36,827 nt of DNA from a virus. Its lineage: Duplodnaviria; Caudoviricetes. A model generated the notes under the pieces. That model worked only from the letters and a program-made list of their open reading frames with translations, was not told the DNA's origin and did not search any database. Location of the stretch: the IMG/VR virus record IMGVR_UViG_3300025150_000028, positions 1-36,827 of that record; one strand, 5' to 3'. Every line of letters starts with the position of its first letter. Positions within the stretch are counted from its first letter, which is position 1. Positions 1,361 through 29,420 of this stretch are shown piece after piece. A program made the position numbers and the translations under genes.

Positions 1361-1435
1361 TGGTTGCCTCGACGGAATTTGAATCCATAATACTGCTGTC
1401 AAAGAGCAGTGTGTTGCCAATTACACCACGAGGCA
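1361..1435 (-). tRNA. tRNA-Gln(TTG)
   Basis: Cloverleaf; anticodon arm CTGCT-CTTTGAC-AGCAG; TTCAAAT T-loop; encoded CCA. Confidence 0.9.
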
Positions 1436-1445
1436 ATAATTAAAA

Positions 1446-1544
1446 TGGCACGGGAACCAGAATTCGCATCTGGACACATAGCCGGTTAGAGCTATCATGA
1501 CGAGTTTAACAGACTCGCGCCTTACTAATTAGGCCAATTCCCGT
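1446..1544 (-). tRNA. tRNA-Asn(GTT) with a 27-nt variable region
   Basis: Acceptor ACGGGAA/TTCCCGT-G-CCA; CGAGT-CTGTTAA-ACTCG; extra arm ATAGC/GCTAT; T-loop TGCGAAT. Confidence 0.8.
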
Positions 1545-1553
1545 ATTAAAATC

Positions 1554-1630
1554 TGGTTGGTCCGAAAGGGTTTGAACCTTTAAGCCTTCTCGTTCAAAGC
1601 GAGATATGCTACCAATTACACCACGGACCA
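1554..1630 (-). tRNA. tRNA-Gln(TTG), second copy
   Basis: TCTCG-CTTTGAA-CGAGA; TTCAAAC T-loop; CCA. Confidence 0.9.
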
Positions 1631-1652
1631 TTTTTTCAAAGACCACATAAAT

Positions 1653-1685
1653 AAAAAAGCCTCCTGAACTTATTCAAGAGGCTTT
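1653..1685 (-). terminator. Intrinsic terminator of the Gln/Asn attenuator
   Basis: AAAGCCTCTTGAA-TAAG-TTCAGGAGGCTTT ending in a U run. Confidence 0.85.
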
Positions 1686-1706
1686 GCTTCAAATTTCTGA
1701 TTATTG

Positions 1707-1787
1707 TTAGAACAGAACACAATCAGACCAAAGCCTCTTAAAGCCTTGGTTCACCTGATTATTCTGTTGATTCATTCTCATTATCAT
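1707..1787 (-). CDS. Asn/Gln-rich leader peptide MIMRMNQQNNQVNQGFKRLWSDCVLF (start may be 1781)
   Basis: Translated by hand; SD-like AAGAAAGG; 8 of 9 consecutive codons are Asn/Gln; lies between promoter and terminator. Confidence 0.85.
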   Translation of the reverse strand: MIMRMNQQNNQVNQGFKRLWSDCVLF

Positions 1788-1812
1788 AAACCTTTCTTAA
1801 TCTTCTGAAGAT

Positions 1813-1841
1813 ACTTTACAACTTACTTTATCAAAAGTCAA
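1813..1841 (-). promoter_or_regulatory. Sigma70-type promoter of the Gln/Asn tRNA operon
   Basis: TTGACT-17 nt-TAAAGT with AT-rich upstream AAAATAATTG. Confidence 0.7.
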
Positions 1842-1856
1842 CAATTATTTTAAGTT

Positions 1857-2192
1857 TTATTTCATTATTTCTAATATCGAATTATTATAATCAACATTAA
1901 AATTACTGTCGAGGTTAAGATCTAAGTCGCCCAAAGTAACAACCCCATTTCCTGTTGTTTCATTCGTCTTTATCTTACTCAAATCAACAACAACTTCTTT
2001 ACTTTCTGCCGGACCACCATTAATCCCAGATATCGATATAGGAACAGTAACGGTTCCATATACATGTACTGATATATTCTTTATTCCCCACTCTCTCGTT
2101 TCAACATCTATTCTAAAATTAATTGACACTTTGCTGGATTCAATATCTAATGTGTCGCCAAATCCATACACATTAACATCTACAAAAGACAC
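1857..2192 (-). CDS. Hypothetical protein (frame is open upstream to about 2250)
   Basis: 111-aa ORF, beta-rich composition. Confidence 0.6.
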   Translation of the reverse strand: MSFVDVNVYGFGDTLDIESSKVSINFRIDVETREWGIKNISVHVYGTVTVPISISGINGGPAESKEVVVDLSKIKTNETTGNGVVTLGDLDLNLDSNFNVDYNNSILEIMK

Positions 2193-2238
2193 ATATTCAT
2201 TGGGGTCTTGATATGATCCTGCCGTTTTATTATACCAG

Positions 2239-2523
2239 TTAGTAATAATAATTCCTCCTCTTGGACATTATTCGAAAACCGACAACAATAACACCCAAGG
2301 CTAAACTTCCCAAAAGAATTCTTCTGTTCCTTTGTTTTTTATTTTCTGTATTTTTAACGGGGGACGACTTTAATGTACCAAATGAAACGAATTCAACCAT
2401 AGAAGTGTTGCCAGATATAAATTGAACTTGATCTTTAGATGGAATTTTAGTAGGTGCAATCGGAAAAGATGAACAACCAAGAAAAAAAACAATAGCCATA
2501 GTCTGAACAATAAATCTTTTCAT
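2239..2523 (-). CDS. Putative lipoprotein/membrane protein
   Basis: MKR + hydrophobic stretch + FLGC lipobox-like motif; C-terminal hydrophobic helix. Confidence 0.6.
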   Translation of the reverse strand: MKRFIVQTMAIVFFLGCSSFPIAPTKIPSKDQVQFISGNTSMVEFVSFGTLKSSPVKNTENKKQRNRRILLGSLALGVIVVGFRIMSKRRNYYY

Positions 2524-2599
2524 AATATGCTCCTAAATTTTAAATCTCACATATTATTTCAATAAGAAAACAGTATCTTCCTTCTACTTTTTAATAAAA

Positions 2600-2677
2600 T
2601 GGCGTCCCCAGAGAGATTCGAACTCCCGACCTAAAGATTAGAAATCTTTTGCTGCTATCCAACTGAGCTATGGGGAC
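2600..2677 (-). tRNA. tRNA-Arg(TCT)
   Basis: AAAGA-TTTCTAA-TCTTT; canonical D and T arms; CCA; TTGATT..TATAAT promoter-like sequence immediately upstream. Confidence 0.92.
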
Positions 2678-2727
2678 ATTTTCTATATTATACAGGATGG
2701 GTTGTGAAAATCAAATAAAAAACAGAA

Positions 2728-3036
2728 TTACTTTTTATGTCTTTTCTTTTCAACCAACATGAGAATTAAGGAACCCAATGTAGCCCCAGTAGCAGCCGAT
2801 ATTGCAACGAAAACCTTGGCCCAAATCCCATCAACAATAAAAAGATTAGCGATGACGGCAAAAGGTAGCAGTTCTTCTATCCATACTAAAACGCAAGTCA
2901 ATGTTACTTCCAAACGTTGTAACCCTAATATCCTCCGCAAAGCTATGTACCAAGATACAAAGCTTATCGCAAATGACAATAAACAAATTCCTATTGTCAG
3001 GAGGAGGCTCATCTTCTTTCTCCTCAATAATATCAA
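2728..3036 (-). CDS. Small membrane protein (about 3 TM segments)
   Basis: Three hydrophobic stretches, basic C-terminus. Confidence 0.65.
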   Translation of the reverse strand: MILLRRKKMSLLLTIGICLLSFAISFVSWYIALRRILGLQRLEVTLTCVLVWIEELLPFAVIANLFIVDGIWAKVFVAISAATGATLGSLILMLVEKKRHKK

Positions 3037-3099
3037 TCGGATGTGCTTCTCTTTGCATATCTATAATTTCATTCAAAAAATACAAACATATTCCTGCTA

Positions 3100-3321
3100 C
3101 TAAACGTCAGAAGCATCTCTCTGTTTAGTGTAATCCCTGCTCCGAATTACAGCGCTTTCTTCGTCCATTGCAAGAGTCCCAACATCAACAACTTCCCATC
3201 CATCATCCCATATACCGTCTTCTTTTATCTTAACAATAGCTTTAAGTCGAGAATACTTTTCAGGAATCCACGCCTGCTGATAAGCGGTCCCTTTTCTTAA
3301 TTTGCATTGATAATAATTCAT
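3100..3321 (-). CDS. Hypothetical protein (start MNYYQ; the longer track ORF overlaps a tRNA-like gene)
   Basis: GGAGG SD before ATG at 3321. Confidence 0.7.
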   Translation of the reverse strand: MNYYQCKLRKGTAYQQAWIPEKYSRLKAIVKIKEDGIWDDGWEVVDVGTLAMDEESAVIRSRDYTKQRDASDV

Positions 3322-3339
3322 AAGACCTCCGTTTAAAAA

Positions 3340-3436
3340 TGGTAGCGGAAGTTGGATTTGAACCAACAGTGAAGAGTAATGATCTCTTCTACCGGCGAAG
3401 TTTCCCCGGCGAGTTTGACGTTTCCTCTATTCCGCG
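3340..3436 (-). tRNA. Aberrant initiator-Met-like tRNA with a defective anticodon loop and an extra CAT-bearing arm
   Basis: Acceptor CGCGGAA/TTCCGCT-A-CCA (1:72 mismatch); CCGG-GGAAACTTCG-CCGG; GAAGAG-ATCATTA-CTCTTC; intact T arm. Confidence 0.6.
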
Positions 3437-3444
3437 ATTAAAAA

Positions 3445-3535
3445 TGGTGTCTCCGATAGGATTCGAACCTACATTTGCGATTAACGCCCTCTGGGTCCGT
3501 AGCCCAGTGTGCTCATCCAATTACACCACGGAGAC
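3445..3535 (-). tRNA. tRNA-Arg(ACG) with an 18-nt variable region
   Basis: CTGGG-CTACGGA-CCCAG; extra arm GCG-TTAAT-CGC; TTCGAAT; CCA. Confidence 0.88.
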
Positions 3536-4201
3536 ATAATCTTTCATGTATTTCCACCCACGCACTAGCCATTGAGTATATAAATTATGATTCTTCCCGT
3601 ACCACCCACACGCAAAAGGATGGTTCACTTCAACTAAGGTCATCTTTTTGTCACACATACCCATATCTATCGTCCCACAAAAATCATTAGGTATACTAAT
3701 GTCTATATCAGGAGCATCAGGACATTCTATCTCATCACCTAAATACCATTCTCCACATAAAATCTTGCCATTGGAAACATAATAGCGCCACTCATTGTCA
3801 AATTTTACTATATCTGAACACCAATATGGACCCTTCTTTTTCTTACGATATCCCCCATTAGTTACAAATCCAGTAAATCTTTTGTACCTATCTGATGGCT
3901 TTATAAAAACCTTTTTACCTAATGGCCATTCGTTAGATTCCCAAACTTTTCTGTGTAAGTATTCTTTTAAGAAATCAGGGTAATAATTTGGAACAGTATT
4001 TTTTCCCAATTTCTTCTCTACCCATTCTACGCTTCCAACACATATGTAATTTGCATCGCTTTTAGAATCATGTGACATTTTTTCTAACTTGTAAGGAATC
4101 CTATTCATGCCACAAGTATAAGCAACAGCCAAAAATTCTTTAGAGTTCTGATGCTCTCTTTGAATCAAAAATCCATCATATCCTAACATGTCTATTTTCA
4201 T
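3521..4201 (-). CDS. ATP-grasp domain protein (DUF4343/R2K-like)
   Basis: VFIKP, EWRYYV, TIDMG and LVEVN motifs. Confidence 0.7.
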   Translation of the reverse strand: MKIDMLGYDGFLIQREHQNSKEFLAVAYTCGMNRIPYKLEKMSHDSKSDANYICVGSVEWVEKKLGKNTVPNYYPDFLKEYLHRKVWESNEWPLGKKVFIKPSDRYKRFTGFVTNGGYRKKKKGPYWCSDIVKFDNEWRYYVSNGKILCGEWYLGDEIECPDAPDIDISIPNDFCGTIDMGMCDKKMTLVEVNHPFACGWYGKNHNLYTQWLVRGWKYMKDYVSVV

Positions 4202-4252
4202 AATACACCGATAGTTACTGACATACGCTCCATGCTAAAGCCACGGAGGTTC

Positions 4253-5311
4253 TTAGTTAGCAAAAGCCTCATTACATTTCGGCATTTGATTTTCTAATCT
4301 GAGGATATCAGTGTTCCTCTTAGTATTATCACTGTCTAATACTAAATGACCATTGCCTTCAGTGTTATTCAATAATTCAAATGCCGCTATATTAAAAGCG
4401 GCATTTGAATCCGCATGGTCAACGTGTCCACAACTACACTTGAATACTTTTCCATTCCTGTTTCCTATAACTCCACATCTACTACATCTCTGACTAGTAT
4501 ATGCAGGATTGATATAGATAACTGGTATTCCTAATATCTTGGATTTGTATTCTATCATTGTTTTCAACTGATAGAAGCTCCAACTATTTAAGGAATACTT
4601 GAATGACGATTGTGTTTTCTTGTTTCTTTTTTCTCTAATCTTACTCAACTCTTCTAACTTAATTCCACAGCTATTTTGTTGAGCAACTTGAACTATCTTT
4701 TTACTAATTTCGTGATTTAAGTTCTTAATTCTATTTTGTTCTCTTCTCTTGATTTTCTTTAGTTGATATTTTGCTCCTTTCTTTTGTAGTTTTGTTCTCA
4801 GGTTCTTGTATTTTAAGTGAAGATGATTTGCTTCTTTTCCTAATTTGATAACTTTTTTAGTTTTAGGAATTGCTACAACAGCACAGTGTCCAGTAGTATT
4901 TAAGTCTACTCCGATATAGTCTTTGGTTTTCATTTCCTGCTTGTTGAAAACTTCGCAGGAAATATAGCAATAAGTATTATCAACTTCTATCTGATTGATT
5001 TTAGTGAAGTTGTTAGGAAATTGATATTGTAGTTCTAGTTTAATTACTGGAACTTTGATTATTCTAGTTTCTTGGTTGACCTTAATACCTTGGTTAGGAA
5101 CAGTTAGTTTAACAGATTTAATTGATTTACACTTTTTGTTCTTTGAATATTTTTTCAGGATTTGGTTAGAGATTTGTGATTTTAGACCAAAGTGTTTTAC
5201 GTCTTTAGAACTTCTGGATTTAGTTTTAATAGCAAATGTAGCAATTTTTCGAGCGATATTTAGTTCGCTAGAAAAATCTTTGTTGTGCTTAACTTTGTAG
5301 GTTAGTATCAT
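4253..5311 (-). CDS. tnpB: TnpB RNA-guided endonuclease
   Basis: RuvC motifs IGVDLN, IKLEEL and HADSNAAFNI; TSQRCSRCG..CSCG zinc ribbon. Confidence 0.93.
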   Translation of the reverse strand: MILTYKVKHNKDFSSELNIARKIATFAIKTKSRSSKDVKHFGLKSQISNQILKKYSKNKKCKSIKSVKLTVPNQGIKVNQETRIIKVPVIKLELQYQFPNNFTKINQIEVDNTYCYISCEVFNKQEMKTKDYIGVDLNTTGHCAVVAIPKTKKVIKLGKEANHLHLKYKNLRTKLQKKGAKYQLKKIKRREQNRIKNLNHEISKKIVQVAQQNSCGIKLEELSKIREKRNKKTQSSFKYSLNSWSFYQLKTMIEYKSKILGIPVIYINPAYTSQRCSRCGVIGNRNGKVFKCSCGHVDHADSNAAFNIAAFELLNNTEGNGHLVLDSDNTKRNTDILRLENQMPKCNEAFAN

Positions 5312-5721
5312 TTGTTCTTTTGGTTTTCTATATATTTCTTAACTATTGCTAAAGTCACTGCTCCAACAGAAGAAATGAATCTGGAATTAGTCCAAAGAGT
5401 AGGAAGCCTTGATTTTAGTTCTGAGAATTGGTTTCTAAGTTCATGAGAAGTATAACCTTTGATTTTAGAAACAACTTTATATATTCCTTCTTTTGGATTA
5501 GTACTAATTATCAAGTGAACGTGGTCTAGCAAAACTTCCATATCAAGAACTTTGAACTTATATTCTTCTTGTTTTGAAAGAATTAACTCCTTAAGTCGTT
5601 TTGCAATATCTTCTGTCAAAACCTTTCTTCTGTATTTAGGACAGAAGATAACATGATATTGACAAGAGTAGATGAAATCTCCATCCGACTCATACTTCTT
5701 TTCGCTTTGTTGTATTTCCAT
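5308..5721 (-). CDS. tnpA: Y1 HUH transposase
   Basis: YHVIFCPKYRR, DHVHL (HUH), LW, YIENQ. Confidence 0.95.
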   Translation of the reverse strand: MEIQQSEKKYESDGDFIYSCQYHVIFCPKYRRKVLTEDIAKRLKELILSKQEEYKFKVLDMEVLLDHVHLIISTNPKEGIYKVVSKIKGYTSHELRNQFSELKSRLPTLWTNSRFISSVGAVTLAIVKKYIENQKNK

Positions 5722-5879
5722 ATACTAGTCCTTAATATCTTCTATTTATATTATACAAGAAATTAAGAAATATTCCTGCATAAAAGTGAAAATATTTTTT
5801 AGAGTAGGAAATGTTTGAAATTGACGGCATTCATCCCTATGCTGAAGCAACAGGGCTTTCTGCCGTTTTCCCTGTAAGT

Positions 5880-5961
5880 TGGCAAGTAGGTAAGGATTTC
5901 CACCTCTTTTTAATTAATTATGGTTCCGGAGTCCATAACTATACGACTTTACGCTCTACTT
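5880..5961 (-). tRNA. Degenerate tRNA-Arg(CCG)-like gene
   Basis: AAGTAG/CTACTT-G-CCA; TTATGG-A-CTCCGGA-A-CCATAA; eroded D arm; T-loop TGGAAAT. Confidence 0.5.
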
Positions 5962-5968
5962 ATAAAAT

Positions 5969-6045
5969 TGGTGCCGGATAAGGAAGTCGAATCCCTACAA
6001 ACACTGCGTATGAAGCAGTTGCACTAACCATTATGCTAATCCGGC
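5969..6045 (-). tRNA. tRNA-Met(CAT), elongator (Ile2 not excluded)
   Basis: ACTGC-TTCATAC-GCAGT; paired G1-C72; CCA. Confidence 0.85.
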
Positions 6046-6056
6046 ATATTTAAAAA

Positions 6057-6145
6057 TGGCACGGTGAGAGGGATTCGAACCCCCAATGAGTAATTACACT
6101 CGCAGGTTTTGGAGACCCGAGCCATACCAGTTTGACGATCACCGT
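6057..6145 (-). tRNA. tRNA-Trp(CCA) with an 18-nt variable region
   Basis: CGGGT-CTCCAAA-ACCTG; extra arm GAGT-GTAATT-ACTC; TTCGAAT; G-CCA. Confidence 0.88.
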
Positions 6146-6152
6146 ATAAAAA

Positions 6153-6228
6153 TGGTGGGGACGCCGGGAGTCAAACCCGGAACGATAACCTTAGAAGGGT
6201 TTCAGATATTCAGTTTCACCACGTCCCT
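6153..6228 (-). tRNA. tRNA-Arg(TCT), divergent copy
   Basis: AACC-CTTCTAA-GGTT; A1/C72 mismatch; T-loop TTTGACT; CCA. Confidence 0.7.
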
Positions 6229-6237
6229 ATTTTAAAT

Positions 6238-6312
6238 TGGTACTCCTGCCCAGAATCGAACTGGGAACAATTTTTTAGGAGAAAACTATGATGTCCGTTT
6301 CACCACAGGAGT
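6238..6312 (-). tRNA. tRNA-Arg(CCT)
   Basis: GTTTT-CTCCTAA-AAAAT; TTCGATT; CCA. Confidence 0.85.
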
Positions 6313-6315
6313 ATT

Positions 6316-7149
6316 TTAAAAACCCCATGAACTCTTATCGTAAATTGTTTTCTTCGTTATTAGTTTAATTTTATGAGGAAATGCATCCAATTTACGCTGG
6401 TCATTTTCTACGAAGTACCCTTTTGTTTCAACCCATAGGTCTAAGTCTTTAATATAAAAGTCTGGTACATAATTTGCGGCTCGTTCTATTCCATCTTCGA
6501 TTTTTCTATATGGAAATCCCTTAGTGTTTTTAGTCCATGCATATTTCTTCTCGTCCAAATATTCTGCCACAATAAATTCGTAAGAACTGTCCATCCAAAC
6601 TTCCCCCGCTATTGGAGAATTATACCATCCAGACTTGAAATTTCTAACCGATCCCGGATGATATCCACCCTGACCGGGCCGCTTACGAGAACATTCTTTA
6701 GAACAATATTTTTTATATCCATGGTTTTCTTGACACTGAGATATAATATAGTTTTTACCACAAACGGGACAAATTTTGTTGACTGTTTTTTTATTTTTTT
6801 TAGCCACATCGATGCCTTTTCTAAGCCCCCACATCTTCCCTTTTAAGTAAGCCGTTTTGCATGATTCACTAGTCTTTTTAAAAACCTCTGGACGATTATT
6901 AATCCTATCTCTATTTGTATGTTTGGCAGAACAAGAAGAACCACAAAAAATATTTTTTTCATGTGGTTTACATTGAAAATCTTTTTTACATTCCAAACAT
7001 TGTCTAGTTTCGGATTTAAATCCCTGTCTGGTTTTTATCTTCCATATATTACAACACTCACTATTACAAAAAACCCTTCTATTTGATGGTTTGTATGTAA
7101 TATCTTTTCCGCAAGTTCGACATAAAAAAATCATATTTTTATATTTCAT
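6316..7149 (-). CDS. Zinc-finger repeat PD-(D/E)XK endonuclease (putative homing endonuclease)
   Basis: Three CxxC..(F/Y)CxxxC repeats; C-terminal DSSYE..YVPDF..WVETKG. Confidence 0.75.
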   Translation of the reverse strand: MKYKNMIFLCRTCGKDITYKPSNRRVFCNSECCNIWKIKTRQGFKSETRQCLECKKDFQCKPHEKNIFCGSSCSAKHTNRDRINNRPEVFKKTSESCKTAYLKGKMWGLRKGIDVAKKNKKTVNKICPVCGKNYIISQCQENHGYKKYCSKECSRKRPGQGGYHPGSVRNFKSGWYNSPIAGEVWMDSSYEFIVAEYLDEKKYAWTKNTKGFPYRKIEDGIERAANYVPDFYIKDLDLWVETKGYFVENDQRKLDAFPHKIKLITKKTIYDKSSWGF

Positions 7150-7231
7150 ACTTACATACTTACATACTCCAACGGACTCGACCTCAATCCCTTCTTGAAT
7201 TTTAATTTATTTTAGTAACCAGATCGAAACT

Positions 7232-7308
7232 TGGCGGGGACGACGAGGCTCGAACTCGCAACTTTCAGATCGACAATCTGATGCGCTAACCAATTGCGCC
7301 ACGTCCCC
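7232..7308 (-). tRNA. tRNA-Asp(GTC)
   Basis: TCAGA-TTGTCGA-TCTGA; canonical arms; G-CCA. Confidence 0.95.
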
Positions 7309-7311
7309 AAT

Positions 7312-7393
7312 GCATGTTTTACCGATAAATACCGGCCAGACGCTCACTCAGTTTCGCGGCTGCAAGAATTTTTAATCTTGCTTTTTAACATGC
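7312..7393 (-). ncRNA. Candidate multi-branched small RNA between tRNA genes
   Basis: Closing stem GCATGTT/AACATGC; internal GCAAGA/TCTTGC and two weaker hairpins. Confidence 0.4.
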
Positions 7394-7398
7394 TAAAT

Positions 7399-7484
7399 TG
7401 GTAGCGGAGGTTGGAGTTGCACCCACATGACTTTTCAGCACCGGGTTATGAGCCCGGCCCAGCACTACTACTGGCTGCTCCGCA
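7399..7484 (-). tRNA. Initiator tRNA-fMet(CAT) with a 14-nt variable region
   Basis: CCGGG-CTCATAA-CCCGG (three G-C pairs); 1:72 mismatch; T-loop TGCAACT; A-CCA. Confidence 0.8.
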
Positions 7485-7494
7485 ATTAAAAAAT

Positions 7495-7569
7495 TGGTAG
7501 CGGGTGTGGTAATTGCAACCACAATCTTTACGTTATGAGCGTAAAAAGCTACTCTTGCTCCATCCCGCA
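7495..7569 (-). tRNA. fMet-derived tRNA(CAT) lacking the three anticodon-stem G-C pairs
   Basis: TTACG-CTCATAA-CGTAA; acceptor TGCGGG/CCCGCT-A-CCA; T-loop TGCAATT. Confidence 0.75.
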
Positions 7570-7766
7570 ATCACTTAAAGCAACTTATAGTTTACATTAA
7601 TGGTCTTTATGCAAACTATATTATACATTATCGCGCCATATCTTATTGTCGCTAAGTCGTCTTATTTGGCGCATAGTCTTTTTAGCGACACATCCATTAA
7701 CCTATTACTATCAATGTATTTGTGTATTATTTTTGTGCCACTTAAATCGTCTTATATGGCGCATTA

Positions 7767-7841
7767 TGGTACTCCTTAAAGGATTTTAACCTTTAACTAT
7801 GGGTTCGAAGCCCATTATGATGTACGTTTCACCAAAGGAGT
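7767..7841 (-). tRNA. tRNA-Arg(TCG)
   Basis: ATGGG-CTTCGAA-CCCAT; T-loop TTAAAAT; CCA. Confidence 0.82.
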
Positions 7842-7849
7842 GTTGTTTT

Positions 7850-8030
7850 TTCCATCTCCTGAAAGCCGCTTCGGTGCAATTTTAGGTAAGATTTGCAAAA
7901 CTCCATCTTTTTATTTCCGATATTGCCCATCAGGAGAGAACACGGAACTTACTATTCGAGCGGCGATACATCTTCTGAAGATTTTGCCATAATCCAGATA
8001 ATGTTATGGCATATCAGTCAGAAGATACTC
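7850..8030 (-). ncRNA. Candidate pseudoknotted RNA at the head of the Arg/Met/Asp/Trp operon
   Basis: Hairpin ATCTTCTGA..TGCCATAA/TTATGGCA..TCAGAAGAT; GCCGCT/AGCGGC; loop TCTCCTGA complementary to downstream TCAGGAGA. Confidence 0.55.
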
Positions 8031-8071
8031 AACCCATCCTTCAATTGTCAAAGAACAAAACATACAAAAAC

Positions 8072-8110
8072 AAAAAACCCGAAGAATTCTATTAGGAATC
8101 CTTCGGGTTT
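8072..8110 (-). terminator. Intrinsic terminator of the Arg/Met/Asp/Trp attenuator
   Basis: AAACCCGAAGGATTC-CTAATA-GAATTCTTCGGGTTT plus U run. Confidence 0.88.
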
Positions 8111-8134: not shown

Positions 8135-8209
8135 TTAGGCAGAGCGGGTCAAGAGGATGTCCCCGAAGGTCATCCTATCCCACATTCTATCCTGTCTGCG
8201 CGAGTGCAT
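8135..8209 (-). CDS. Arg/Asp/Met/Trp-rich leader peptide MHSRRQDRMWDRMTFGDILLTRSA
   Basis: Translated by hand; SD AGGTGA 8 nt before ATG; RRQDRMWDRM run. Confidence 0.85.
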   Translation of the reverse strand: MHSRRQDRMWDRMTFGDILLTRSA

Positions 8210-8264: not shown

Positions 8265-8293
8265 ACCTTACAATTTCCTGCATATAAAGTCAA
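8265..8293 (-). promoter_or_regulatory. Sigma70-type promoter of the Arg/Met/Asp/Trp operon
   Basis: TTGACT-17 nt-TAAGGT with upstream AAAATAATTG. Confidence 0.7.
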
Positions 8294-8320
8294 CAATTAT
8301 TTTAAATTTTCTTATGAAAT

Positions 8321-8809: not shown

Positions 8810-9114
8810 TCTGTACTTGCAAATAAGCTAGGTACGTCTTTATTATCGATTCGTCTTTGCAGTTCTTGTTTAAAAGTAATGATTCCAATTAATGGTTCTT
8901 CTGAATGGTACTTATATCTATTTATTTCTTCTTCGGTTAATTGTAGTGGTGGTTCGGTGTCAAATTCTTCTGCCGTGTCTTTGCCGACGAATTTAATATA
9001 ATTTTCTGTGGCTGCTTCTGGAGAATAATCGCACCACCAATCATAGTCGTTCATTCGGTAGACACGAGCTTCGCTATTTTCTATACCTAGAGCAGCGTCT
9101 TCGGAATGGCCCAT
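8803..9114 (-). CDS. Hypothetical protein
   Basis: 103-aa ORF with GGAG SD. Confidence 0.7.
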   Translation of the reverse strand: MGHSEDAALGIENSEARVYRMNDYDWWCDYSPEAATENYIKFVGKDTAEEFDTEPPLQLTEEEINRYKYHSEEPLIGIITFKQELQRRIDNKDVPSLFASTEW

Positions 9115-19392: not shown

Positions 19393-19414
19393 CGCACAAA
19401 ATCCTAACTTTGGA

Positions 19415-19481: not shown

Positions 19482-19489
19482 CTCTATAA

Positions 19490-19593
19490 AATTCAACAGG
19501 TTGATTCAATTTTATTTTACTGAGTTTTATTCTCGGCCGCCAGTTTCCCAGCGTATCATGTTTATTTGTTGCCGAAACCAACCGTTATGAATT
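19490..19593 (-). ncRNA. Y-RNA-like hairpin 2
   Basis: AACGGTTGGTTTCGGCAA ... AATCAACC-T-GTT; starts at the predicted TSS. Confidence 0.6.
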
Positions 19594-19601
19594 CTGTTAC
19601 A

Positions 19602-19630
19602 ATAATACCCACATATCGTTACAAAGTCAA
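19602..19630 (-). promoter_or_regulatory. Sigma70-type promoter
   Basis: TTGACT-17 nt-TATTAT. Confidence 0.7.
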
Positions 19631-19639
19631 CTCTTATTT

Positions 19640-24540: not shown

Positions 24541-24635
24541 TGGCAGAGCGAGTGAGATTTGAACTCACGGGTGAACTTTAAAGGCCCACCAATCGATTTC
24601 CAGTCGATCCCTTTCGGCCACTCAGGCATCGCTCT
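24541..24635 (-). tRNA. tRNA-Ser(GGA)
   Basis: ATCGA-CTGGAAA-TCGAT; long V arm; G-CCA. Confidence 0.92.
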
Positions 24636-24665
24636 ATTAAGTCCTGTGAAAAATATAAAATTTAC

Positions 24666-24754
24666 TGGCGGAGGCACTGAGGATCGAACTCAGATGTCCA
24701 CTTAAGGACGCCGCTTTAGCAGAGCGGTCCCTTACCAATTCGGGCCATACCTCC
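24666..24754 (-). tRNA. tRNA-Ser(GCT)
   Basis: CCGCT-CTGCTAA-AGCGG; long V arm; G-CCA. Confidence 0.92.
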
Positions 24755-24762
24755 ATTAAATC

Positions 24763-24857
24763 TGGAAGAGGGTGAGGGATTTGAACCCCCGCATGACGTT
24801 TTAAGCGCCATGTTCCGATTTCAAGTCGGATGCTTTTAGCCACTCAGCCAACCCTCT
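24763..24857 (-). tRNA. tRNA-Ser(TGA)
   Basis: TCCGA-CTTGAAA-TCGGA; long V arm; T-CCA. Confidence 0.92.
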
Positions 24858-25056
24858 AATTTCTCCAACCATCTTCCAAAATATCTTCTTTTAATCTCTT
24901 GGCTTGATTTGCCTTTTTCTTTTTACACCCCCAACAAATATCTCCCTTGTCTCCATAAATTTCCGCGTATTCAGCATAACTTAGGTCTTCGTCAATCATT
25001 GTTCTACAAACATCGCAAATTACTGCCCCGTCTCCATCATTAAATTTGTATGCCAT
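24856..25056 (-). CDS. Small zinc-finger hypothetical protein
   Basis: FNDGDGAVICDVC..CWGC; AAGGAG SD. Confidence 0.7.
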   Translation of the reverse strand: MAYKFNDGDGAVICDVCRTMIDEDLSYAEYAEIYGDKGDICWGCKKKKANQAKRLKEDILEDGWRN

Positions 25057-25073
25057 AACACTCCTTAAAATAT

Positions 25074-25166
25074 TGGCGGAGGGTGAGGAGTCTGAGTCCC
25101 CAAGACCTTTTTAGGGGTCTCCGCTTTTCGAGAGCGGTGCAATTTTTCCATTTCTGCCAACCCTCC
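25074..25166 (-). tRNA. tRNA-Ser(CGA)
   Basis: CCGCT-CTCGAAA-AGCGG; atypical T-loop CTCAGAC; G-CCA. Confidence 0.85.
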
Positions 25167-25179
25167 ATAAAAAAATTTT

Positions 25180-25503
25180 TTAACTTTCCGTTACATTCCA
25201 TTTCTTGTCATATGCTTCTTTATTTACTCCAGCCTTTTTCAAATCTTCTGCAAACCATTCCCAATCTCTCTCGCAAAGCTGACCCTCATCTGCCGCCCAT
25301 TGCCAACTCCACTCTTTTAGCCCACACATCAACATTTCTTGTCCCAAATAAACCATCCTGCGACTTTTGTGATAATCCTCAACAGCTTTATTTATCGCCT
25401 CTTCATCGTTTTTCTTGTGAGCCTCTAGAATTTCGCCAACAGCTTCGTCAACACATATATCTATATCGTGAACTACAAACTCCAACCAAGACGCAGTACG
25501 CAT
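25180..25503 (-). CDS. Hypothetical protein
   Basis: 107-aa ORF with AAGGAG SD. Confidence 0.7.
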   Translation of the reverse strand: MRTASWLEFVVHDIDICVDEAVGEILEAHKKNDEEAINKAVEDYHKSRRMVYLGQEMLMCGLKEWSWQWAADEGQLCERDWEWFAEDLKKAGVNKEAYDKKWNVTES

Positions 25504-25519
25504 AATTACTCCTTAAATA

Positions 25520-26030
25520 TGGTGCCGGAGGCGGGATTTGAACCCACACACCCTTTCGGATAACAGATTTTACTTACCACTATAGCTTTCACTACCCGTT
25601 CGCTCGTCGCTACTAAGTTTGTGGTCTGGACTATGCCTTTACCATATTAAATAAGGGGACATCATATAACCTTTTGGCTTCATCTCATATGACTTTTTGC
25701 TAGTAGTCCGACTAAAGGTTTATAAGCCACATTGCCCTTTCGTCTTTCACTAACTTTGCCTTATTTAATTTAGGTAGCTGATTATAGTCTCTACACCTTC
25801 CCGAACTTGATAGATAATTCCACCCCTCTCTATCAGCACATTGGGTAGCCGTTGTCTTTCCAACTGTCATCGGGCTTGGCTCGGCGTTGGGGACATATGT
25901 TTACAGATTGCCAACCCTTTTGAGGTTAGTCATTGTTACCCGTTCACCGAATTTACAGCTTACTAACACACTATTTCTAGTATGCCGACCCCTACGAGTC
26001 TGTTGCGGCTGCCAATTACGCCACTCCGGC
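25520..26030 (-). tRNA. tRNA-Leu(TAA) interrupted by a group I intron
   Basis: 5' exon ends ACAGA-CT (25997-26030); 3' exon starts TAA-AA-TCTGT (25520-25572). Confidence 0.9.
25573..25996 (-). ncRNA. Group I intron (IC3-like), 424 nt, no ORF
   Basis: P1 GACTC-GTAG-GGGTC with U.G at the splice site; AAATTCGGTGAA, AACGCCGAGCCAAG, GTAGAGACTA, AAGGCATAGTCC; terminal G. Confidence 0.9.
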
Positions 26031-26050
26031 AATTTACTATCAAAGAACAT

Positions 26051-26137
26051 TGGTGCCATCGAAGGGATTTAAACCCTTACTCCATTTAAGGAACACGGTT
26101 CTGAGCCGTGCGCGTATGTCAATTCCGCCACGATGGC
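26051..26137 (-). tRNA. tRNA-Leu(CAG)
   Basis: CACGG-CTCAGAA-CCGTG; A-CCA. Confidence 0.9.
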
Positions 26138-26143
26138 ATTTTA

Positions 26144-26404
26144 TTATTCTGGCCATTTATCACTATTTTCTTCATCTGCAACAAGATATTCTCCCAGTAT
26201 TTTTTTCATACAATGCTGACAAATATCTAGCTTAAGGACATTCCCATCTCCAAAAACAGAACCGTATCCACCCTTAAACAACATCGAATAAATTTCTTGA
26301 ACCTCTTCCCAATCTTTTTTGCAATCATACACTTTTTTGCAAACATCGCAAGTAATACTTTCTGGAACTTTCTGTTCTACGGTTTGTGTGCTATATTTAA
26401 TCAT
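26144..26404 (-). CDS. Small zinc-finger hypothetical protein
   Basis: TCDVC..GGYGSVFGDG..DICQHC. Confidence 0.75.
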   Translation of the reverse strand: MIKYSTQTVEQKVPESITCDVCKKVYDCKKDWEEVQEIYSMLFKGGYGSVFGDGNVLKLDICQHCMKKILGEYLVADEENSDKWPE

Positions 26405-26571
26405 ACTAATCCCCTTTTCATCATGTTTAGCTTGAGTTTTGCTTTGTCGTATTTTTTCTTCGTTGCCTCGATTTCTTCTGGGCTAACACTCTGCTTAAAA
26501 TGTTCGCTATTTAGCCTCTTCTTAAGAAATTCAACATACTGCTCTTCGTGTTCTAGTTTGTTTACTTTCAT
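26401..26571 (-). CDS. 56-aa hypothetical protein (not in track)
   Basis: Hand translation MKVNKLEHEEQYVEFLKKRLNSEHFK..KAKLKLNMMKRGLV; ATGA overlap. Confidence 0.6.
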   Translation of the reverse strand: MKVNKLEHEEQYVEFLKKRLNSEHFKQSVSPEEIEATKKKYDKAKLKLNMMKRGLV

Positions 26572-26588
26572 TGCTTTTATCCTAAAGT

Positions 26589-26675
26589 TGGTGGGAGGAC
26601 AAACGGTTCATGTCAACTTCCATCTTAACCCGTTCATACCATGTTGACTTCAGGCAGGTTTTTAAACCCCCTCCC
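26589..26675 (-). ncRNA. CCA-ended tRNA-sized RNA without a cloverleaf
   Basis: GGGAGGG/TCCTCCC-A-CCA; GTCAAC/GTTGAC; no T arm. Confidence 0.55.
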
Positions 26676-26684
26676 ATTAAAAGT

Positions 26685-26772
26685 TGGTGGTAGTGGTGGG
26701 AGTCGAACCCACAAGGATATTTATATCCGGTAGATTTTGAGTCTACTGCGTAAGCCGTTCCGCCACACTACC
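26685..26772 (-). tRNA. tRNA-Leu(CAA)
   Basis: GTAGA-CTCAAAA-TCTAC; A-CCA. Confidence 0.92.
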
Positions 26773-26785
26773 TCATGACTAAATT

Positions 26786-26870
26786 TGGTGGGCATGACTG
26801 GATTTGAACCAGCACTCCTTTCGGAACCAGATTCTAAGTCTGGCGGGTCTGCCAATTTCCCCACACGCCC
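26786..26870 (-). tRNA. tRNA-Leu(TAG)
   Basis: CCAGA-CTTAGAA-TCTGG; A-CCA. Confidence 0.92.
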
Positions 26871-26877
26871 TTAAAAC

Positions 26878-26964
26878 TGGTGGTACTGAAGGGAGTCGAA
26901 CCCTCAATCTCTTACGAGCCTATACTCCTCAAGCATAGATGTATGCCAATTCCATCACAGTACC
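26878..26964 (-). tRNA. tRNA-Leu(GAG)
   Basis: TATGC-TTGAGGA-GTATA; A-CCA. Confidence 0.9.
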
Positions 26965-27030
26965 ATGGGTGGGAGGTTTCAATCGGGTATTACTACTCTA
27001 CGATTGATATTTATCCCACATACTTCTAAT

Positions 27031-27184
27031 TGGTGATGGGGGTTAGACTCGAACTAACATAGCCATTATGAGCAACCGAACTCATTATAGGCGGCGGATT
27101 TACATTTTATATTGCCGTAAACAACCCTTCTAATCGGGTTGGATGGTTTTTGTCCGCTGGGTTTGCCAATTCCCCCACCCTATC
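27031..27184 (-). tRNA. tRNA-Tyr(GTA) with a 47-nt insertion in the anticodon loop
   Basis: GCGGA-C-[27105-27151]-TGTAAA-TCCGC; intact D, T and acceptor arms; very long V arm. Confidence 0.72.
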
Positions 27185-27213
27185 ATCTAACTTCAATTAT
27201 CAAAGAACAAATA

Positions 27214-27300
27214 TGGTGGTAAGGGAGAGATTTGAACTCTCTAACCCGTAAAGGACCGGTTTTACAGACCGGCGCGGCTACCCATATCCGCCTCCCTACC
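27214..27300 (-). tRNA. tRNA-Tyr(GTA)
   Basis: CCGGT-CTGTAAA-ACCGG; A-CCA. Confidence 0.9.
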
Positions 27301-27320
27301 AAACTCAATGTTATTTTTAC

Positions 27321-27491
27321 TTATTTAACCAACCTTTCATTTTTCTTCAAGTTACATTCTATCGCATTTTTTAAATTATTCAAGGCATTTCTTTTTGTAT
27401 TTCCGGTTGCCTTCTTATGGATTTTTGTTGCTTCTGCCATATAGAAGGTTACGCCGTCGAACTCGTTTTTATATTCTTTCAACCTAATCAT
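27321..27491 (-). CDS. 56-aa HicB-N-terminal-like protein (not in track)
   Basis: Hand translation ..FYMAEATKIHKKATGNTKRNALNNLKNAIE..; ATGA overlap with the HNH gene. Confidence 0.45.
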   Translation of the reverse strand: MIRLKEYKNEFDGVTFYMAEATKIHKKATGNTKRNALNNLKNAIECNLKKNERLVK

Positions 27492-28630
27492 TTAAACATT
27501 CCGTCTCTCTTGTTTTTTGTAATTTCTTTCCAATTGATTTCTAATTTATTACATCTCTTTCTTATTGCATTATCTGATACTCCGTACATTTTCCCTATTT
27601 TCGTCATTGGAAACTTTGTTATTAAGTTTTCTAAATCATCCTTGCTAACATTAAACCTTACGAATAAAAAGTGTTTTTTAGGTATAGTGATATTCTTGTT
27701 TTCACATATTTTTCTGACAGCATCCGTAGAGATGTTAAATTTTGTAGCTATCTTAGTAATGGATTCCGTCTTAACCATGTCCTTCAGTTTGTCGTCATCT
27801 ATTTTAACATATTCCTTTTTATTACCAATTATTGTTTTTGAATTTTCTAAAATTATTTCTTGTTTTAAATTAAAATTGTCTTTCAAATATTTTTCTTTTA
27901 TAAGAAGTATTATCTTCGTGTTGTCATAATCAGAGTGTATAATTCGATGACAATTAGAACATAATAGCTCGCATTTATCAAGTTCTTTTTTTATTATTTC
28001 CCATTTTCTATTTAATGATGTCCCAATTGCCATCTCTTTATTGTCTTCTGAATGGTGAAATTCAAATGCCGCAAAATTAATGTCGTTAATTTCATAATTA
28101 CACTTTTTACACTTCCCGCCCAGATAATTTATTGCCTTTATTTTGCTTGCTCTCCTTCTTAATTTTGAAACACACGTATTGCAAATTTTAGGTCTATTTA
28201 ACTGAAAATCTGAGTATTTTTTATCACACAAACAACATTTGTCATATGATATGTTTTTTTTCTTTGCAAGCTCAATATCAATCCCGTATTCCCTACACCA
28301 GTATCTTATGGAGCCGTGTGTCAATCCCATTAGCTTTATCGTTCTATGTACTCCGTTATATTTTAATGTTTCTCTTAGTATTTTTTCATCTACTTTAATA
28401 TTCCTATATCTCTCTTGACTTTCTAATATTTTCATTCTTCTTATTTTTTCTGAAATCTGTTCTTTAGTTAATTTTATGTCTCCCGCCCATAGTCTTATGG
28501 TTCTAGTTTTTATTCCTAACAATTTGGAAATTTCACCGAACGTATTTCCCTCTAGCCTTAATTTTCTAGCTGTCTCTTTCATATGCTCTCCTATCTTGCT
28601 ATAAATTTCTTTATATGAAATATTATACAA
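27488..28630 (-). CDS. HTH-HNH-HTH homing endonuclease
   Basis: KAINYLGGKCKKC..FEFHH..ELDKCELLCSNCHRIIH; several HTH-like repeats. Confidence 0.85.
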   Translation of the reverse strand: MYNISYKEIYSKIGEHMKETARKLRLEGNTFGEISKLLGIKTRTIRLWAGDIKLTKEQISEKIRRMKILESQERYRNIKVDEKILRETLKYNGVHRTIKLMGLTHGSIRYWCREYGIDIELAKKKNISYDKCCLCDKKYSDFQLNRPKICNTCVSKLRRRASKIKAINYLGGKCKKCNYEINDINFAAFEFHHSEDNKEMAIGTSLNRKWEIIKKELDKCELLCSNCHRIIHSDYDNTKIILLIKEKYLKDNFNLKQEIILENSKTIIGNKKEYVKIDDDKLKDMVKTESITKIATKFNISTDAVRKICENKNITIPKKHFLFVRFNVSKDDLENLITKFPMTKIGKMYGVSDNAIRKRCNKLEINWKEITKNKRDGMFK

Positions 28631-28668
28631 GATAACTGAGTATAATTCCTTCTTTTATTTAGGAATTA

Positions 28669-28743
28669 TGGAGGGCCGCATGAGAATCGAACTCATGTTT
28701 GGAAATTTGCAGTTTCCCGTGTGAACCACTCCACCAGCGGCCC
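28669..28743 (-). tRNA. tRNA-Cys(GCA)
   Basis: GGAAA-CTGCAAA-TTTCC; T-CCA discriminator. Confidence 0.92.
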
Positions 28744-28800
28744 GTTTAATAAATTGTCAAAGAGCGAACCTTCAACCACTCAGCCATCCGTGCCTTTTCC

Positions 28801-29175
28801 TTACCAATCCTTTTCTACTATACTATCTATAATTTTGAAGTTCTCTTTATCCATCACGACATTCATTGTAAGTGTCGTAGCTGCTTCGCCAAAGTCTTTC
28901 GCATCGTTATACATACTGGTCCAGAAAGTTGATGTAAATGTTCCGTCAGCGTTCAGGACTGTTTTCTCAATTATCTCGTCTACTATTGGTTTAGTTTCGT
29001 CTCTCCATCCTGACAATTCCCAATCAATTGCCTTAGTTTCTTCTTTAATGCACAATCCCATCAATTTTGCCACTGCCATTTCTATTGTTGTTTCTTTTCC
29101 AAGTGTCATCATTCTCCAGTGTAAAATAAAGCTACTGGAACTCGAATTACTAACAAATCCTGTTCTAATCTTCAT
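28801..29175 (-). CDS. Hypothetical protein with MKIRTGFVSNSSSSSF N-terminus
   Basis: AAGGAG SD before ATG 29175. Confidence 0.75.
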   Translation of the reverse strand: MKIRTGFVSNSSSSSFILHWRMMTLGKETTIEMAVAKLMGLCIKEETKAIDWELSGWRDETKPIVDEIIEKTVLNADGTFTSTFWTSMYNDAKDFGEAATTLTMNVVMDKENFKIIDSIVEKDW

Positions 29176-29200
29176 ATTTATCTCCTTATATTTAACCAAC

Positions 29201-29233
29201 AAAAAAGCCCGTTAGATTTTCATCTAACGGGCT
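29201..29233 (-). terminator. Intrinsic terminator of the Ser/Leu/Tyr/Cys attenuator
   Basis: AGCCCGTTAGAT-GAAA-ATCTAACGGGCT-TTTTT. Confidence 0.9.
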
Positions 29234-29254
29234 GAGTCTTTCCCATCTCTTTTT

Positions 29255-29338
29255 TTAGGTAGAGAAAACCCCACTCAGCCCGTTACTTAGATAACAGGAT
29301 GACAAGCTTAACGAACTGCTGAGTGACAGGTTTTTCAT
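29255..29338 (-). CDS. Ser/Leu/Cys/Tyr leader peptide MKNLSLSSSLSLSSCYLSNGLSGVFST
   Basis: Translated by hand; SD TAAGGT; 15 consecutive codons that are only L, S, C or Y. Confidence 0.9.
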   Translation of the reverse strand: MKNLSLSSSLSLSSCYLSNGLSGVFST

Positions 29339-29391
29339 ATCTATTACCTTATTCTTTATTAACGTAAAAATTCCTTCATCTAATTTTCAAT

Positions 29392-29420
29392 ATCCTACTC
29401 GTTAATGATATTAAAGTCAA
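29392..29420 (-). promoter_or_regulatory. Sigma70-type promoter of the Ser/Leu/Tyr/Cys operon
   Basis: TTGACT-17 nt-TAGGAT with upstream AAAATAATAG. Confidence 0.7.

Follow-up and report, generated by a model that had tools for sequence, protein, structure and literature searches.

Leader-peptide attenuators of amino-acid operons include trpL, hisL and the multivalent thrL and ilvGMEDA leaders. In pheM-pheST, in thrS-type control and in the T-box riboswitches, tRNA status governs genes of the translation apparatus through termination or antitermination; T-boxes bind uncharged tRNA directly, without a translated leader, and act on genes for synthetases and for biosynthesis. The tnaC and mgtL leaders are uORF-dependent Rho attenuators. 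In E. coli, pheL-pheA is a leader-peptide transcription attenuator of an amino-acid operon, as set out in the available text of PMC3082878. The Anabaena trn operon, under TrcR, is accessory, normally silent and switched on under translational stress, according to the available part of PMC10272220. When and why phages use their own tRNAs is a long-standing question, and the accessible portions of two papers present them as counter-defence, replacing depleted or cleaved host tRNA (PMC10264068), and as a means of rescue in the case of PARIS and T5 tRNA-Lys (PMC11464382). In the 36,827-nucleotide stretch analysed here (the window), which comes from an uncultured groundwater phage, each of three tRNA blocks is headed by a short leader ORF.

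Three tRNA blocks and their leader units

ARAGORN finds 23 tRNA genes in the window, all on the minus strand (as are the unit features below) and grouped by amino acid. Block 1 (1361..1630) consists of tRNA-Gln(UUG), tRNA-Asn(GUU) and tRNA-Gln(UUG). Block 2 (2600-7841) contains five Arg, three Met, one Asp and one Trp tRNA by ARAGORN; its proximal part (5969..7841) runs Arg(UCG), Met(CAU) twice, Asp(GUC), an HNH gene (7149-6316, minus strand), Arg(CCU), Arg(UCU), Trp(CCA) and Met(CAU), and past an IS200/IS605 element (4253-5721) lie the distal tRNA-Arg(ACG) (3445-3535) and the last gene, tRNA-Arg(UCU) (2600-2677), whose gating is uncertain because it has a promoter-like site of its own (2714-2687). 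Block 3 (24541..28743) comprises tRNA-Cys, an HNH gene, Tyr, Leu(GAG, UAG, CAA, CAG, UAA) and Ser(CGA, UGA, GCU, GGA); ARAGORN lists Cys, Tyr, four Leu and four Ser, and the fifth Leu is a tRNA-Leu(UAA) with a 424-nt intron (25520-26030). The sorting by amino acid asserted by the first-pass annotation thus stands as stated, with the HNH gene and the IS element as additional tenants of block 2.

The same architecture occurs three times, as that annotation had also proposed: promoter motif, Shine-Dalgarno sequence (SD), short ORF, antiterminator strand within the ORF and U-tailed terminator. The promoters lie at 1813..1851 (shared motif 1851-1836, -35 TTGACT at 1841, -10 at 1818-1813), 8265..8303 (-35 TTGACT at 8293, -10 at 8270-8265) and 29392..29430 (-35 TTGACT at 29420, -10 at 29397-29392), with a 17-nt spacer and weak -10 boxes that match at 3-4 of 6 positions. 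The shared 16-nt motif occurs four times against 0.32 expected, for a pattern derived from these same sites. Its fourth copy, likewise accompanied by a terminator, stands before a Ro60-like gene with no tRNA, and was rejected as a codon-matched tRNA leader; in this unit a multi-strand switch is combined with an ORF that is weak and no longer than 10 codons.

Between promoter-like site and genes, every unit has an SD and a short ORF 7-8 nt behind it: a 24-aa N/Q leader, MRMNQQNNQVNQGFKRLWSDCVLF (1707..1781, SD at 1795-1790; an alternative in-frame ATG at 1787 would give 26 aa, but is too near the SD), a 24-aa R/D/M/W leader, MHSRRQDRMWDRMTFGDILLTRSA (8135..8209, SD at 8223-8218), and a 27-aa L/S/C/Y leader, MKNLSLSSSLSLSSCYLSNGLSGVFST (29255..29338, SD at 29351-29346). 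Intrinsic terminators with stems of 13, 15 and 12 bp, each followed by a U tract, lie at 1650..1685, 8068..8110 and 29200..29233, ahead of the genes; their hairpins (1685-1656, 8110-8075 and 29233-29206) rank among the longest-stemmed U-tailed ones in the scans. The statement that they directly precede tRNAs has to be amended for the L/S/C/Y unit, in which a gene for a 124-aa hypothetical protein (28801..29175, minus strand) comes first; this gene is missing from the corresponding place in the related loci L097 and L079, and is therefore likely to be a passenger.

Motifs that resemble the consensus of rrn-type boxA antitermination elements, and that we call boxA-like, lie between the unit 1 terminator and the first tRNA (1634..1644), behind the unit 2 terminator (8056-8046), ahead of tRNA-Cys in block 3 (28765-28755) and further into block 3 at 27208 and 26048. 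The pattern, derived from these same sites, matches seven times where 0.26 would be expected; every match is on the minus strand and five are outside genes and before tRNAs. A similar motif is present in 6 of 14 related leaders.

The leaders show no likeness to one another beyond chance, as had been claimed, and each is nonetheless enriched in the amino acids of its own downstream tRNAs. Within codons 2-15, a range picked after the leaders had been seen, cognate residues number 8/14, 9/14 and 12/14 in units 1, 2 and 3 (P 5e-5 to 3e-7), compared with 0-2/14 for the amino acids of the other blocks, giving a diagonal 3x3 match; over the whole ORF the counts are 8/23, 11/23 and 18/26 (P 4e-4, 3e-4 and 1e-7). 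Base shuffles of codons 2-15 equal the observed counts at p 2e-5, p 2e-4 and in 0/50,000 cases, and the other two reading frames contain 1-3 cognate residues. Isoacceptor coverage is most detailed in unit 3, where every one of the 11 downstream tRNAs has a codon of its own among codons 4-18, and where the five Leu codons in the control stretch correspond to five different Leu anticodons (P=0.017). For Ser and Arg, coverage is within chance (P 0.35 and 0.43), and the unit 2 leader has no CGA or CGG codon for the first tRNA of its block, Arg(UCG).

Predicted antiterminator strands occupy 1728..1742 in unit 1, beginning directly after the N/Q stretch, 8162..8176 (codons 12-16) in unit 2, and 29273..29285 in unit 3, where the strand repeats the 3' arm of the terminator. 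Equally strong complementarity arose in 0/300, 1/300 and 0/300 codon shuffles, respectively.

Conservation and variation in other phages

The leader ORFs, whose loss in homologous loci would have counted against the first-pass proposal, are kept in the relatives L097, L079 and L107, with synonymous change in the orthologous leaders of L097 (MRKMSLSLSSLSLSCYSGNGLSVALHF) and L107 (MRDMRGDRRDTLYGFLAYADVCL). The relatives exhibit three-strand covariation; in L079b, the same two bases are altered in all three strands, once the antiterminator has been shifted by one column in a realignment by eye. In the split cluster of L079, tRNA-Cys belongs to a unit of its own, and Cys is absent from the Tyr/Leu/Ser leader ahead of the antiterminator. 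Composition tracks other tRNA sets too, in L054, in the L286 family and in Caulobacter phages.

Permutation of tRNA sets gives p=1e-5 over 12 rows and p=2e-4 over the nine non-window loci, where the leader usually follows a differing tRNA set, with misses. Three of the positive rows come from orthologues of units in the window, so that the rows are not independent. The filter for these relatives was fixed after earlier leader results were seen, and L072 and L073, which are the window's own sequence, were excluded from all counts. Ten of the 12 relatives that passed the filter have an antiterminator stronger than codon shuffles; upstream of it, enrichment in cognate residues (P<0.05) is found in only six. 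It is not significant in L079a, L154, L190 and L210, the L206 block serves the full set of 20 amino acids, and the L180 leader has 0/14 cognate codons; the L154 and L180 blocks were ended early by weak hairpins. The claim that composition follows tRNA content mostly holds, as in the split cluster, L054, L286 and the Caulobacter phages, with misses such as L180.

A search by RNA structure alone returned 18 viral loci, five of them directly before tRNA-Cys/Val/Leu blocks, and all five have L/V/C-rich ORFs (three distinct peptides); in bacteria, 3/120 loci are near tRNA and none has such an ORF. A Y/R/Q/F/V/I/N leader that varies in frame and has the geometry of the window units is conserved among the Caulobacter phages CcrBL9, phiCbK, Rogue, RB23 and BL10, and in phiCbK the design is present and unannotated. 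Leaders of the kind predicted by the first-pass annotation for Gly/Ala/Val/Thr/Pro/Lys/Glu/His/Phe/Ile clusters are present in other phages. A terminator-less variant, in which a codon-matched ORF is followed by a C-rich tract, occurs in L015 and at CcrBL9 gp149.

A clear unit was present in only one of the eight cultured-phage stretches first screened, and none in the examined stretches of DSS3P8, PaP1, GAP32, STWB21, Aeromonas 65.2 and 4_4572 or in a T5-like stretch. Two candidates were rejected on unsupported antiterminators: an S/F-rich ORF with terminator 1.7 kb before the Ser/Phe tRNAs of Vibrio 2.275.O (117/300 shuffles) and a second L301 leader, for F/E/D (189/300). Among the cluster heads in eight stretches of five further viral records, one has a codon-matched leader (L156, which is L015) and the remainder have none. 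Protein scans of viral contigs with ClpA-like, NUDIX and Ro60-like queries returned no relatives, and the scan with the 124-aa protein returned 28 mostly distant loci, of which one, L015, was useful. The Atlas classes a neighbouring protein no more finely than Uroviricota. A tRNA-Arg(UCG) pattern search had 0 matches, and the contigs of four DNA runs, which are short fragments, showed no variant over the leader beyond position 9000.

A predicted switch and competing explanations

Promoter-like site, SD, ORF, cognate stretch, antiterminator complementarity, terminator and tRNA block can be read directly in the sequence. Folding predicts that antiterminator occupancy drops to about zero where the cognate stretch ends in 13/13 leaders, positives chosen by hand, so that the strand would be free while a ribosome is on the control codons and covered afterwards, consistent with the covariation; in their predicted geometry, the three units match a functioning attenuator. 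We consider it probable that each unit is a ribosome-mediated transcription attenuator gating one amino-acid-sorted tRNA block, and that the units act as a tRNA-supply homeostat. With a ribosome held on any cognate codon, the antiterminator strand would stay available for pairing with the 5' arm of the terminator, permitting read-through into the tRNA genes, while a ribosome past the cognate stretch would cover the strand and let the terminator form. The boxA-like motifs behind the terminators may aid transcription through the non-coding block. Transcription-translation coupling in the host is assumed. Feedback would be negative, because new tRNAs would speed decoding of the same codons, each block shutting itself off. 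Leader conservation, composition that mostly tracks tRNA content and the predicted switch geometry support the first-pass proposal of leader-peptide attenuation of tRNA genes.

What might trip such a switch? Starvation for an amino acid would not be relieved by extra tRNA, so a likelier adaptive trigger than starvation or uncharged tRNA is the loss or absence of isoacceptors, through degradation or cleavage of host tRNA or in hosts that have too little of an isoacceptor. Defence against anticodon nucleases may be the purpose of the units.

Real attenuators could also serve as general sensors of translation health, opening at ribosome stalls of any kind, under drugs or when initiation fails, with the codon match serving only to tune them. 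The ribosome-free equilibrium fold, kinetics aside, mostly favours antitermination (antiterminator 0.49-0.99 occupied in 12/13 leaders), leaders before the all-amino-acid clusters of L152, L154 and L206 draw on almost the full range of amino acids, and L180 combines a good antiterminator with a leader from which the amino acids of its first two tRNAs are absent. However, a general sensor has no need of three unrelated leaders with a diagonal match, nor of a composition that moves with tRNA content, and we regard this reading as unlikely.

Somewhat less probable still is that the attenuators are ancestral and here partly bypassed or vestigial, most tRNAs being driven by internal promoters borne by HNH or IS elements. 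Such insertions do lie in the blocks, and promoter-like sites inside block 2, a TTGACA-18-TATCTT directly behind the unit 2 terminator that overlaps the boxA-like motif (8051-8022) and those at 6646 and 2714, could bypass that terminator. Yet each of the three leaders remains intact, its complementarity close to perfect, a scan for promoter-like sites found none within blocks 1 or 3, and promoter-like matches overall are at chance (73 vs 74 expected).

We give little credence to functional peptides, or to ligand- or tRNA-binding riboswitches of T-box-like type, that would control the terminator without ribosome stalling. The multi-strand switch of the fourth same-promoter unit, with its weak ORF, would suit such control; against it, the window contains no match at gathering score to a T-box, riboswitch or leader family of Rfam (the T-box model has no match at E<=1 either), the peptides share nothing and vary freely among cognate residues, and the cognate stretch stops at the ribosome-footprint boundary. 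Chance or base composition in AT-rich intergenic DNA ahead of ordinary terminators is largely refuted already and scarcely credible: although Ser and Leu have many codons, and among 218 short ATG ORFs in the window five reach P<1e-3 for any amino-acid set (the three leaders, each top for its own set, and two plus-strand ORFs of the other 215), shuffles that keep the base composition argue against it (p<=2e-4 each), as do the position of the leaders, their diagonal match, their conservation and the covariation.

Relation to known attenuators and to phage tRNA biology

A literature search that covered subscription papers thinly found no description of attenuators on phage tRNA genes, in agreement with the first-pass impression that such control is apparently undescribed; in the available text of PMC10264068 and of the huge-phage survey PMC7162821, "attenuat" and "leader" occur 0 times. 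If the attenuator reading is correct, phage tRNAs are made on demand upon failed decoding of specific codons, which would favour replacement, a counter-defence, over constitutive codon compensation, would explain the sorting of tRNA genes by amino acid, and would carry a textbook mechanism over to a target without report in the literature searched. The idea is directly testable in the laboratory phage phiCbK, whose host is tractable, and such leaders could serve as reporters for tRNA-cutting defence systems. A wider and more tentative conjecture, which we hold to be possible but rather doubtful, is that large phages maintain a tRNA homeostat with codon resolution, sorting operons by amino acid for isoacceptor-sampling leaders, so that they switch on only those tRNA families that are missing from the host or have been destroyed by it, that two wirings arose (intrinsic terminator with early control codons, and Rho-type with C-rich tail), and that the leaders map the tRNAs under attack in a host.

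The accessible text of PMC10264068 and PMC11464382 treats tRNA sequence and rescue, not control, and supplies the likely selective reason for the phage units. Like the Anabaena trn operon, the phage blocks are accessory tRNAs predicted to be switched on by translational stress; trn differs in having a protein repressor acting at initiation and a single 26-gene operon, with codon-family resolution not described in the available part of PMC10272220. As in pheM-pheST, thrS-type control and T-boxes, the phage units would control translation-apparatus genes by tRNA status, but unlike T-boxes, none of which was found in the window, the phage leaders are short ORFs. Rho attenuators of the tnaC/mgtL type are a possible model, by analogy, for the terminator-less L015 and CcrBL9 gp149 variant, whereas the three window units use intrinsic terminators.

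Closest are the pheL-type attenuators, with which the units share an SD, a short ORF with control codons, a 2:3 antiterminator set against a 3:4 U-tailed terminator, and a predicted read-through upon stalling on control codons; with the thr and ilv leaders they would share multivalent sensing. The dominant 1:2 pause or protector hairpin of amino-acid attenuators, by which termination occurs in the absence of translation, is clear in some phage units only (it forms when the N/Q unit is folded at full length, and it dominates in L107). Unlike amino-acid attenuators, the phage units reside in a phage, in three copies that would sense up to four amino acids each, and their synonymous codons are spread across isoacceptors rather than run together. 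The downstream genes are tRNAs and passengers instead of biosynthesis or synthetase genes, which places the units outside the classical attenuator class: their output is not an enzyme or synthetase, it would be the sensed molecule itself.

Codon-matched leaders of three tRNA blocks

What precedes the tRNA genes of this 36,827-base virus record, found in sequencing runs of groundwater or aquifer DNA? Nearly all of the 50 ORFs scanned lie on the minus strand, and their products, which include HNH and GIY-YIG nucleases, an IS200/IS605 pair, NAD synthase, macro domain and NUDIX proteins, a Ro60-like DUF2828 protein, DnaJ and a Clp ATPase, fit a piece of a large tailed phage. ARAGORN places 23 tRNAs in three blocks grouped by amino acid, N/Q (unit 1), R/D/M/W (unit 2) and L/S/C/Y (unit 3), and to these is added tRNA-Leu(UAA) (25520-26030, minus strand), whose anticodon loop holds a 424-nt intron, probably group I, with no match in an Rfam search; the intron at the related locus L097 is 404 nt. 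Upstream of each block is a TTGACT promoter with a common upstream motif (4 copies in the window against 0.32 expected, for a pattern drawn from these sites), followed by a Shine-Dalgarno (SD) sequence, an ORF of 24, 24 or 27 codons and a U-tailed terminator (12-15 bp). The first-pass annotation had claimed both the sorting by amino acid and the repeated architecture, and both are borne out; the three-unit observation is real. An IS200/IS605 element (TnpA and TnpB; 4253-5721, minus strand) lies within the R/D/M/W block, with the distal Arg tRNAs on its far side, and promoter-like sites at 8051, 6646 and 2714 in this unit might allow bypass of its attenuator.

Cognate residues, those of the amino acids served by a leader's own block, fill 8/14, 9/14 and 12/14 of codons 2-15 in units 1, 2 and 3 (P = 5e-6, 5e-5 and 3e-7; base-shuffle p of 2e-5, 2e-4 and 0/50,000), and each of the other two sets has 0-2 residues there. 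Over the whole ORF the counts are 8/23, 11/23 and 18/26. Of 218 short ORFs, the best for each set is its own leader, and 2 other ORFs also reach P<1e-3. As first proposed, the leaders are unrelated in sequence to one another yet each is enriched for its own tRNAs' amino acids. Each of 11 tRNAs has a codon in the L/S/C/Y control stretch, whose five Leu codons match five Leu anticodons (P = 0.017). For Ser and Arg, isoacceptor coverage by the leaders shows no excess over chance, and tRNA-Arg(UCG) has no codon of its own in the unit 2 leader.

The predicted switch

A strand in the second half of each ORF pairs with the terminator 5' arm, and 0, 1 and 0 of 300 codon-shuffled ORFs (units 1-3) pair as strongly. 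When RNA was masked codon by codon for an assumed ribosome footprint of 13 nt from the A-site codon start, equilibrium folding kept the antiterminator with the ribosome on the cognate stretch and lost it just past that stretch in 13/13 leaders, namely the three of the window and ten relatives picked by hand. Ribosome position on the leader would set the choice between antiterminator and terminator, and, if the leader is translated and transcription and translation are coupled in the host, tRNA supply would feed back negatively onto its own block. Because the ribosome-free equilibrium fold mostly keeps the antiterminator (0.49-0.99 occupied in 12/13 leaders), an untranslated leader may leave the switch open as well. 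Anatomy, codon match and conservation can be read directly in the sequence. It is quite probable that the units function as leader-peptide attenuators of phage tRNA blocks, and the rest of this phage would be expected to carry leaders for the remaining amino acids.

Related loci, cultured phages and other RNA elements

We gathered 285 loci via the protein family beside Ser tRNAs, further regions and a boxA-like pattern. In these an automated scan identified 51 terminators no more than 1.2 kb from a tRNA, and 29 of the 51 also have a short ATG ORF. A filter set after that scan from the window's model, requiring at most -15 kcal/mol, an ORF of 18-45 codons and 10-30 nt between its stop and the stem, retained 15 rows, 3 being the window units. 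A supported antiterminator is present in 10 of the 12 others. That leaders should be conserved holds for L107 and L097, orthologues of units 2 and 3 with synonymous changes; that composition should track tRNA content holds for six of the 12 (L054, L079b, L097, L107, L216 and L277), which are enriched ahead of the antiterminator; L079a, L154, L180, L190 and L210 show no such enrichment. The L206 leader heads a block serving all 20 amino acids. Permutation of tRNA sets gave p=1e-5 across the 12 rows whose sets are restricted and p=2e-4 across the 9 non-window rows; the rows in both tests are not independent, some being orthologues. The L152, L154 and L206 leaders, upstream of large mixed tRNA clusters, have 35-45 codons and sample nearly all amino acids; in L152 and L154 the antiterminator lies in a C-terminal stretch conserved between the two. 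In L079, tRNA-Cys has a separate unit, the Tyr/Leu/Ser leader's control stretch is without Cys, and two bases co-vary across the antiterminator and both terminator arms. A pattern of the RNA strands only matched 18 viral and 120 bacterial loci; 5 of the viral matches immediately precede Cys/Val/Leu blocks, all with L/V/C-rich ORFs lacking an SD (3 distinct peptides), and such ORFs are missing from the 3 bacterial matches that lie close to a tRNA. Leaders of this kind are absent from many other tRNA clusters screened.

Among eight cultured-phage stretches screened, one, from Caulobacter phage CcrBL9, has a clear unit: 11/16 residues ahead of the antiterminator are cognate (P=0.002, leaving aside a tRNA-Tyr that went uncalled), 0/300 shuffles give as strong an antiterminator, and the unit matches 38 phage records. 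All four phages compared, phiCbK, Rogue, RB23 and BL10, keep the ORF, apparently leaderless start, terminator and geometry; changes among their leaders are synonymous, with a one-codon deletion in two. In CcrBL9 and phiCbK the ORF has 31-32 codons. The suggested scan for a short ORF and terminator before other tRNA clusters finds them in these five phages. Directly after the phiCbK attenuator (about 1710-1790 of L432) is an unannotated tRNA-Tyr(GUA)-like gene, matched by the leader's Tyr codon and called by ARAGORN in RB23. Since phiCbK carries the same design, the hypothesis is directly testable there. CcrBL9 gp149 (7745-7980 of L424) is 33/38 cognate to a Pro/Thr/Lys/Leu/His/Ala/Ser/Trp block (P=7e-8; the stretch matches 11 phage records), and the final 16/16 codons of the L015 leader (8815-9015) are L/S/C/Y. 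Because a C-rich tract after the ORF replaces the U-tailed terminator in both, their sequence suggests a Rho-dependent form of the codon-matched leader.

Window 11-mers resembling the boxA consensus have 7 matches against 0.26 expected (the pattern being drawn from these sites): five pattern matches lie outside genes before tRNA genes (1644, 8056, 26048, 27208 and 28765, minus strand), one within a tRNA and one within an ORF; a similar motif is 3' of 6/14 related leaders. A fourth promoter copy with a 235-nt leader (19360-19640, minus strand) precedes the Ro60-like gene (DUF2828, phrog_850; 17744-19351). This leader, for which an Rfam search gave no match, has an ORF of 10 codons behind a poor SD; its near-identical strands at 19586 and 19474 can each pair with a third at 19430, which can also pair with the terminator 5' arm (duplexes of -12 to -15 kcal/mol), and as folded it looks like a switch of another kind. 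Two tRNA-shaped RNAs ending in CCA (3340-3436 and 27031-27184, minus strand) have anticodon arms of abnormal form, and a branched insertion is present in one of them; near the position of the second, relatives L083 and L094 carry Leu(AAG). Just upstream of tRNA-Cys, a 5' half-tRNA (28766-28795, minus strand) continues straight into a boxA-like motif, likewise in L079 (about 820-850), and L097 has a complete tRNA-Cys with an identical 5' end; the half-tRNA is possibly a remnant of a replaced ancestral gene. Two non-coding spacers of the R/D/M/W block (7575-7765 and 7845-8045, minus strand) fold much more strongly than their base shuffles (z of about -4.5 and -3.0), with no match in Rfam.

Purpose and comparison with known systems

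Depletion and cleavage of host tRNAs in the course of infection have been described (PMC10264068, PMC11464382). Because extra tRNA cannot relieve amino acid starvation but does relieve tRNA loss, we favour a tRNA-supply homeostat as the purpose of the units. A T-box reading of the leaders was dropped, since Rfam T-box models have no match in the window. Known leader systems for comparison are trp, his, thr, ilv, pheM, tnaC and mgtL, and the window units resemble multivalent leader-peptide attenuators in their ribosome-binding site and short ORF, matching control codons, intrinsic terminator and predicted antiterminator, and differ in the class of regulated gene, for they head tRNA genes. A 1:2 protector hairpin is present in the full-length fold of the N/Q unit and dominant in L107. 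In the literature searched we found no report of attenuator control of phage tRNA genes, and the available portions of PMC7162821, PMC4810235 and PMC4807359 contain no account of it. The pheL leader, as described in PMC3082878, follows the same ribosome-position logic; its ribosome-free default may differ from that of the leaders folded here, whose antiterminators are mostly occupied at equilibrium. The nearest functional analogue is the Anabaena trn operon, which, according to PMC10272220, is controlled by a repressor.
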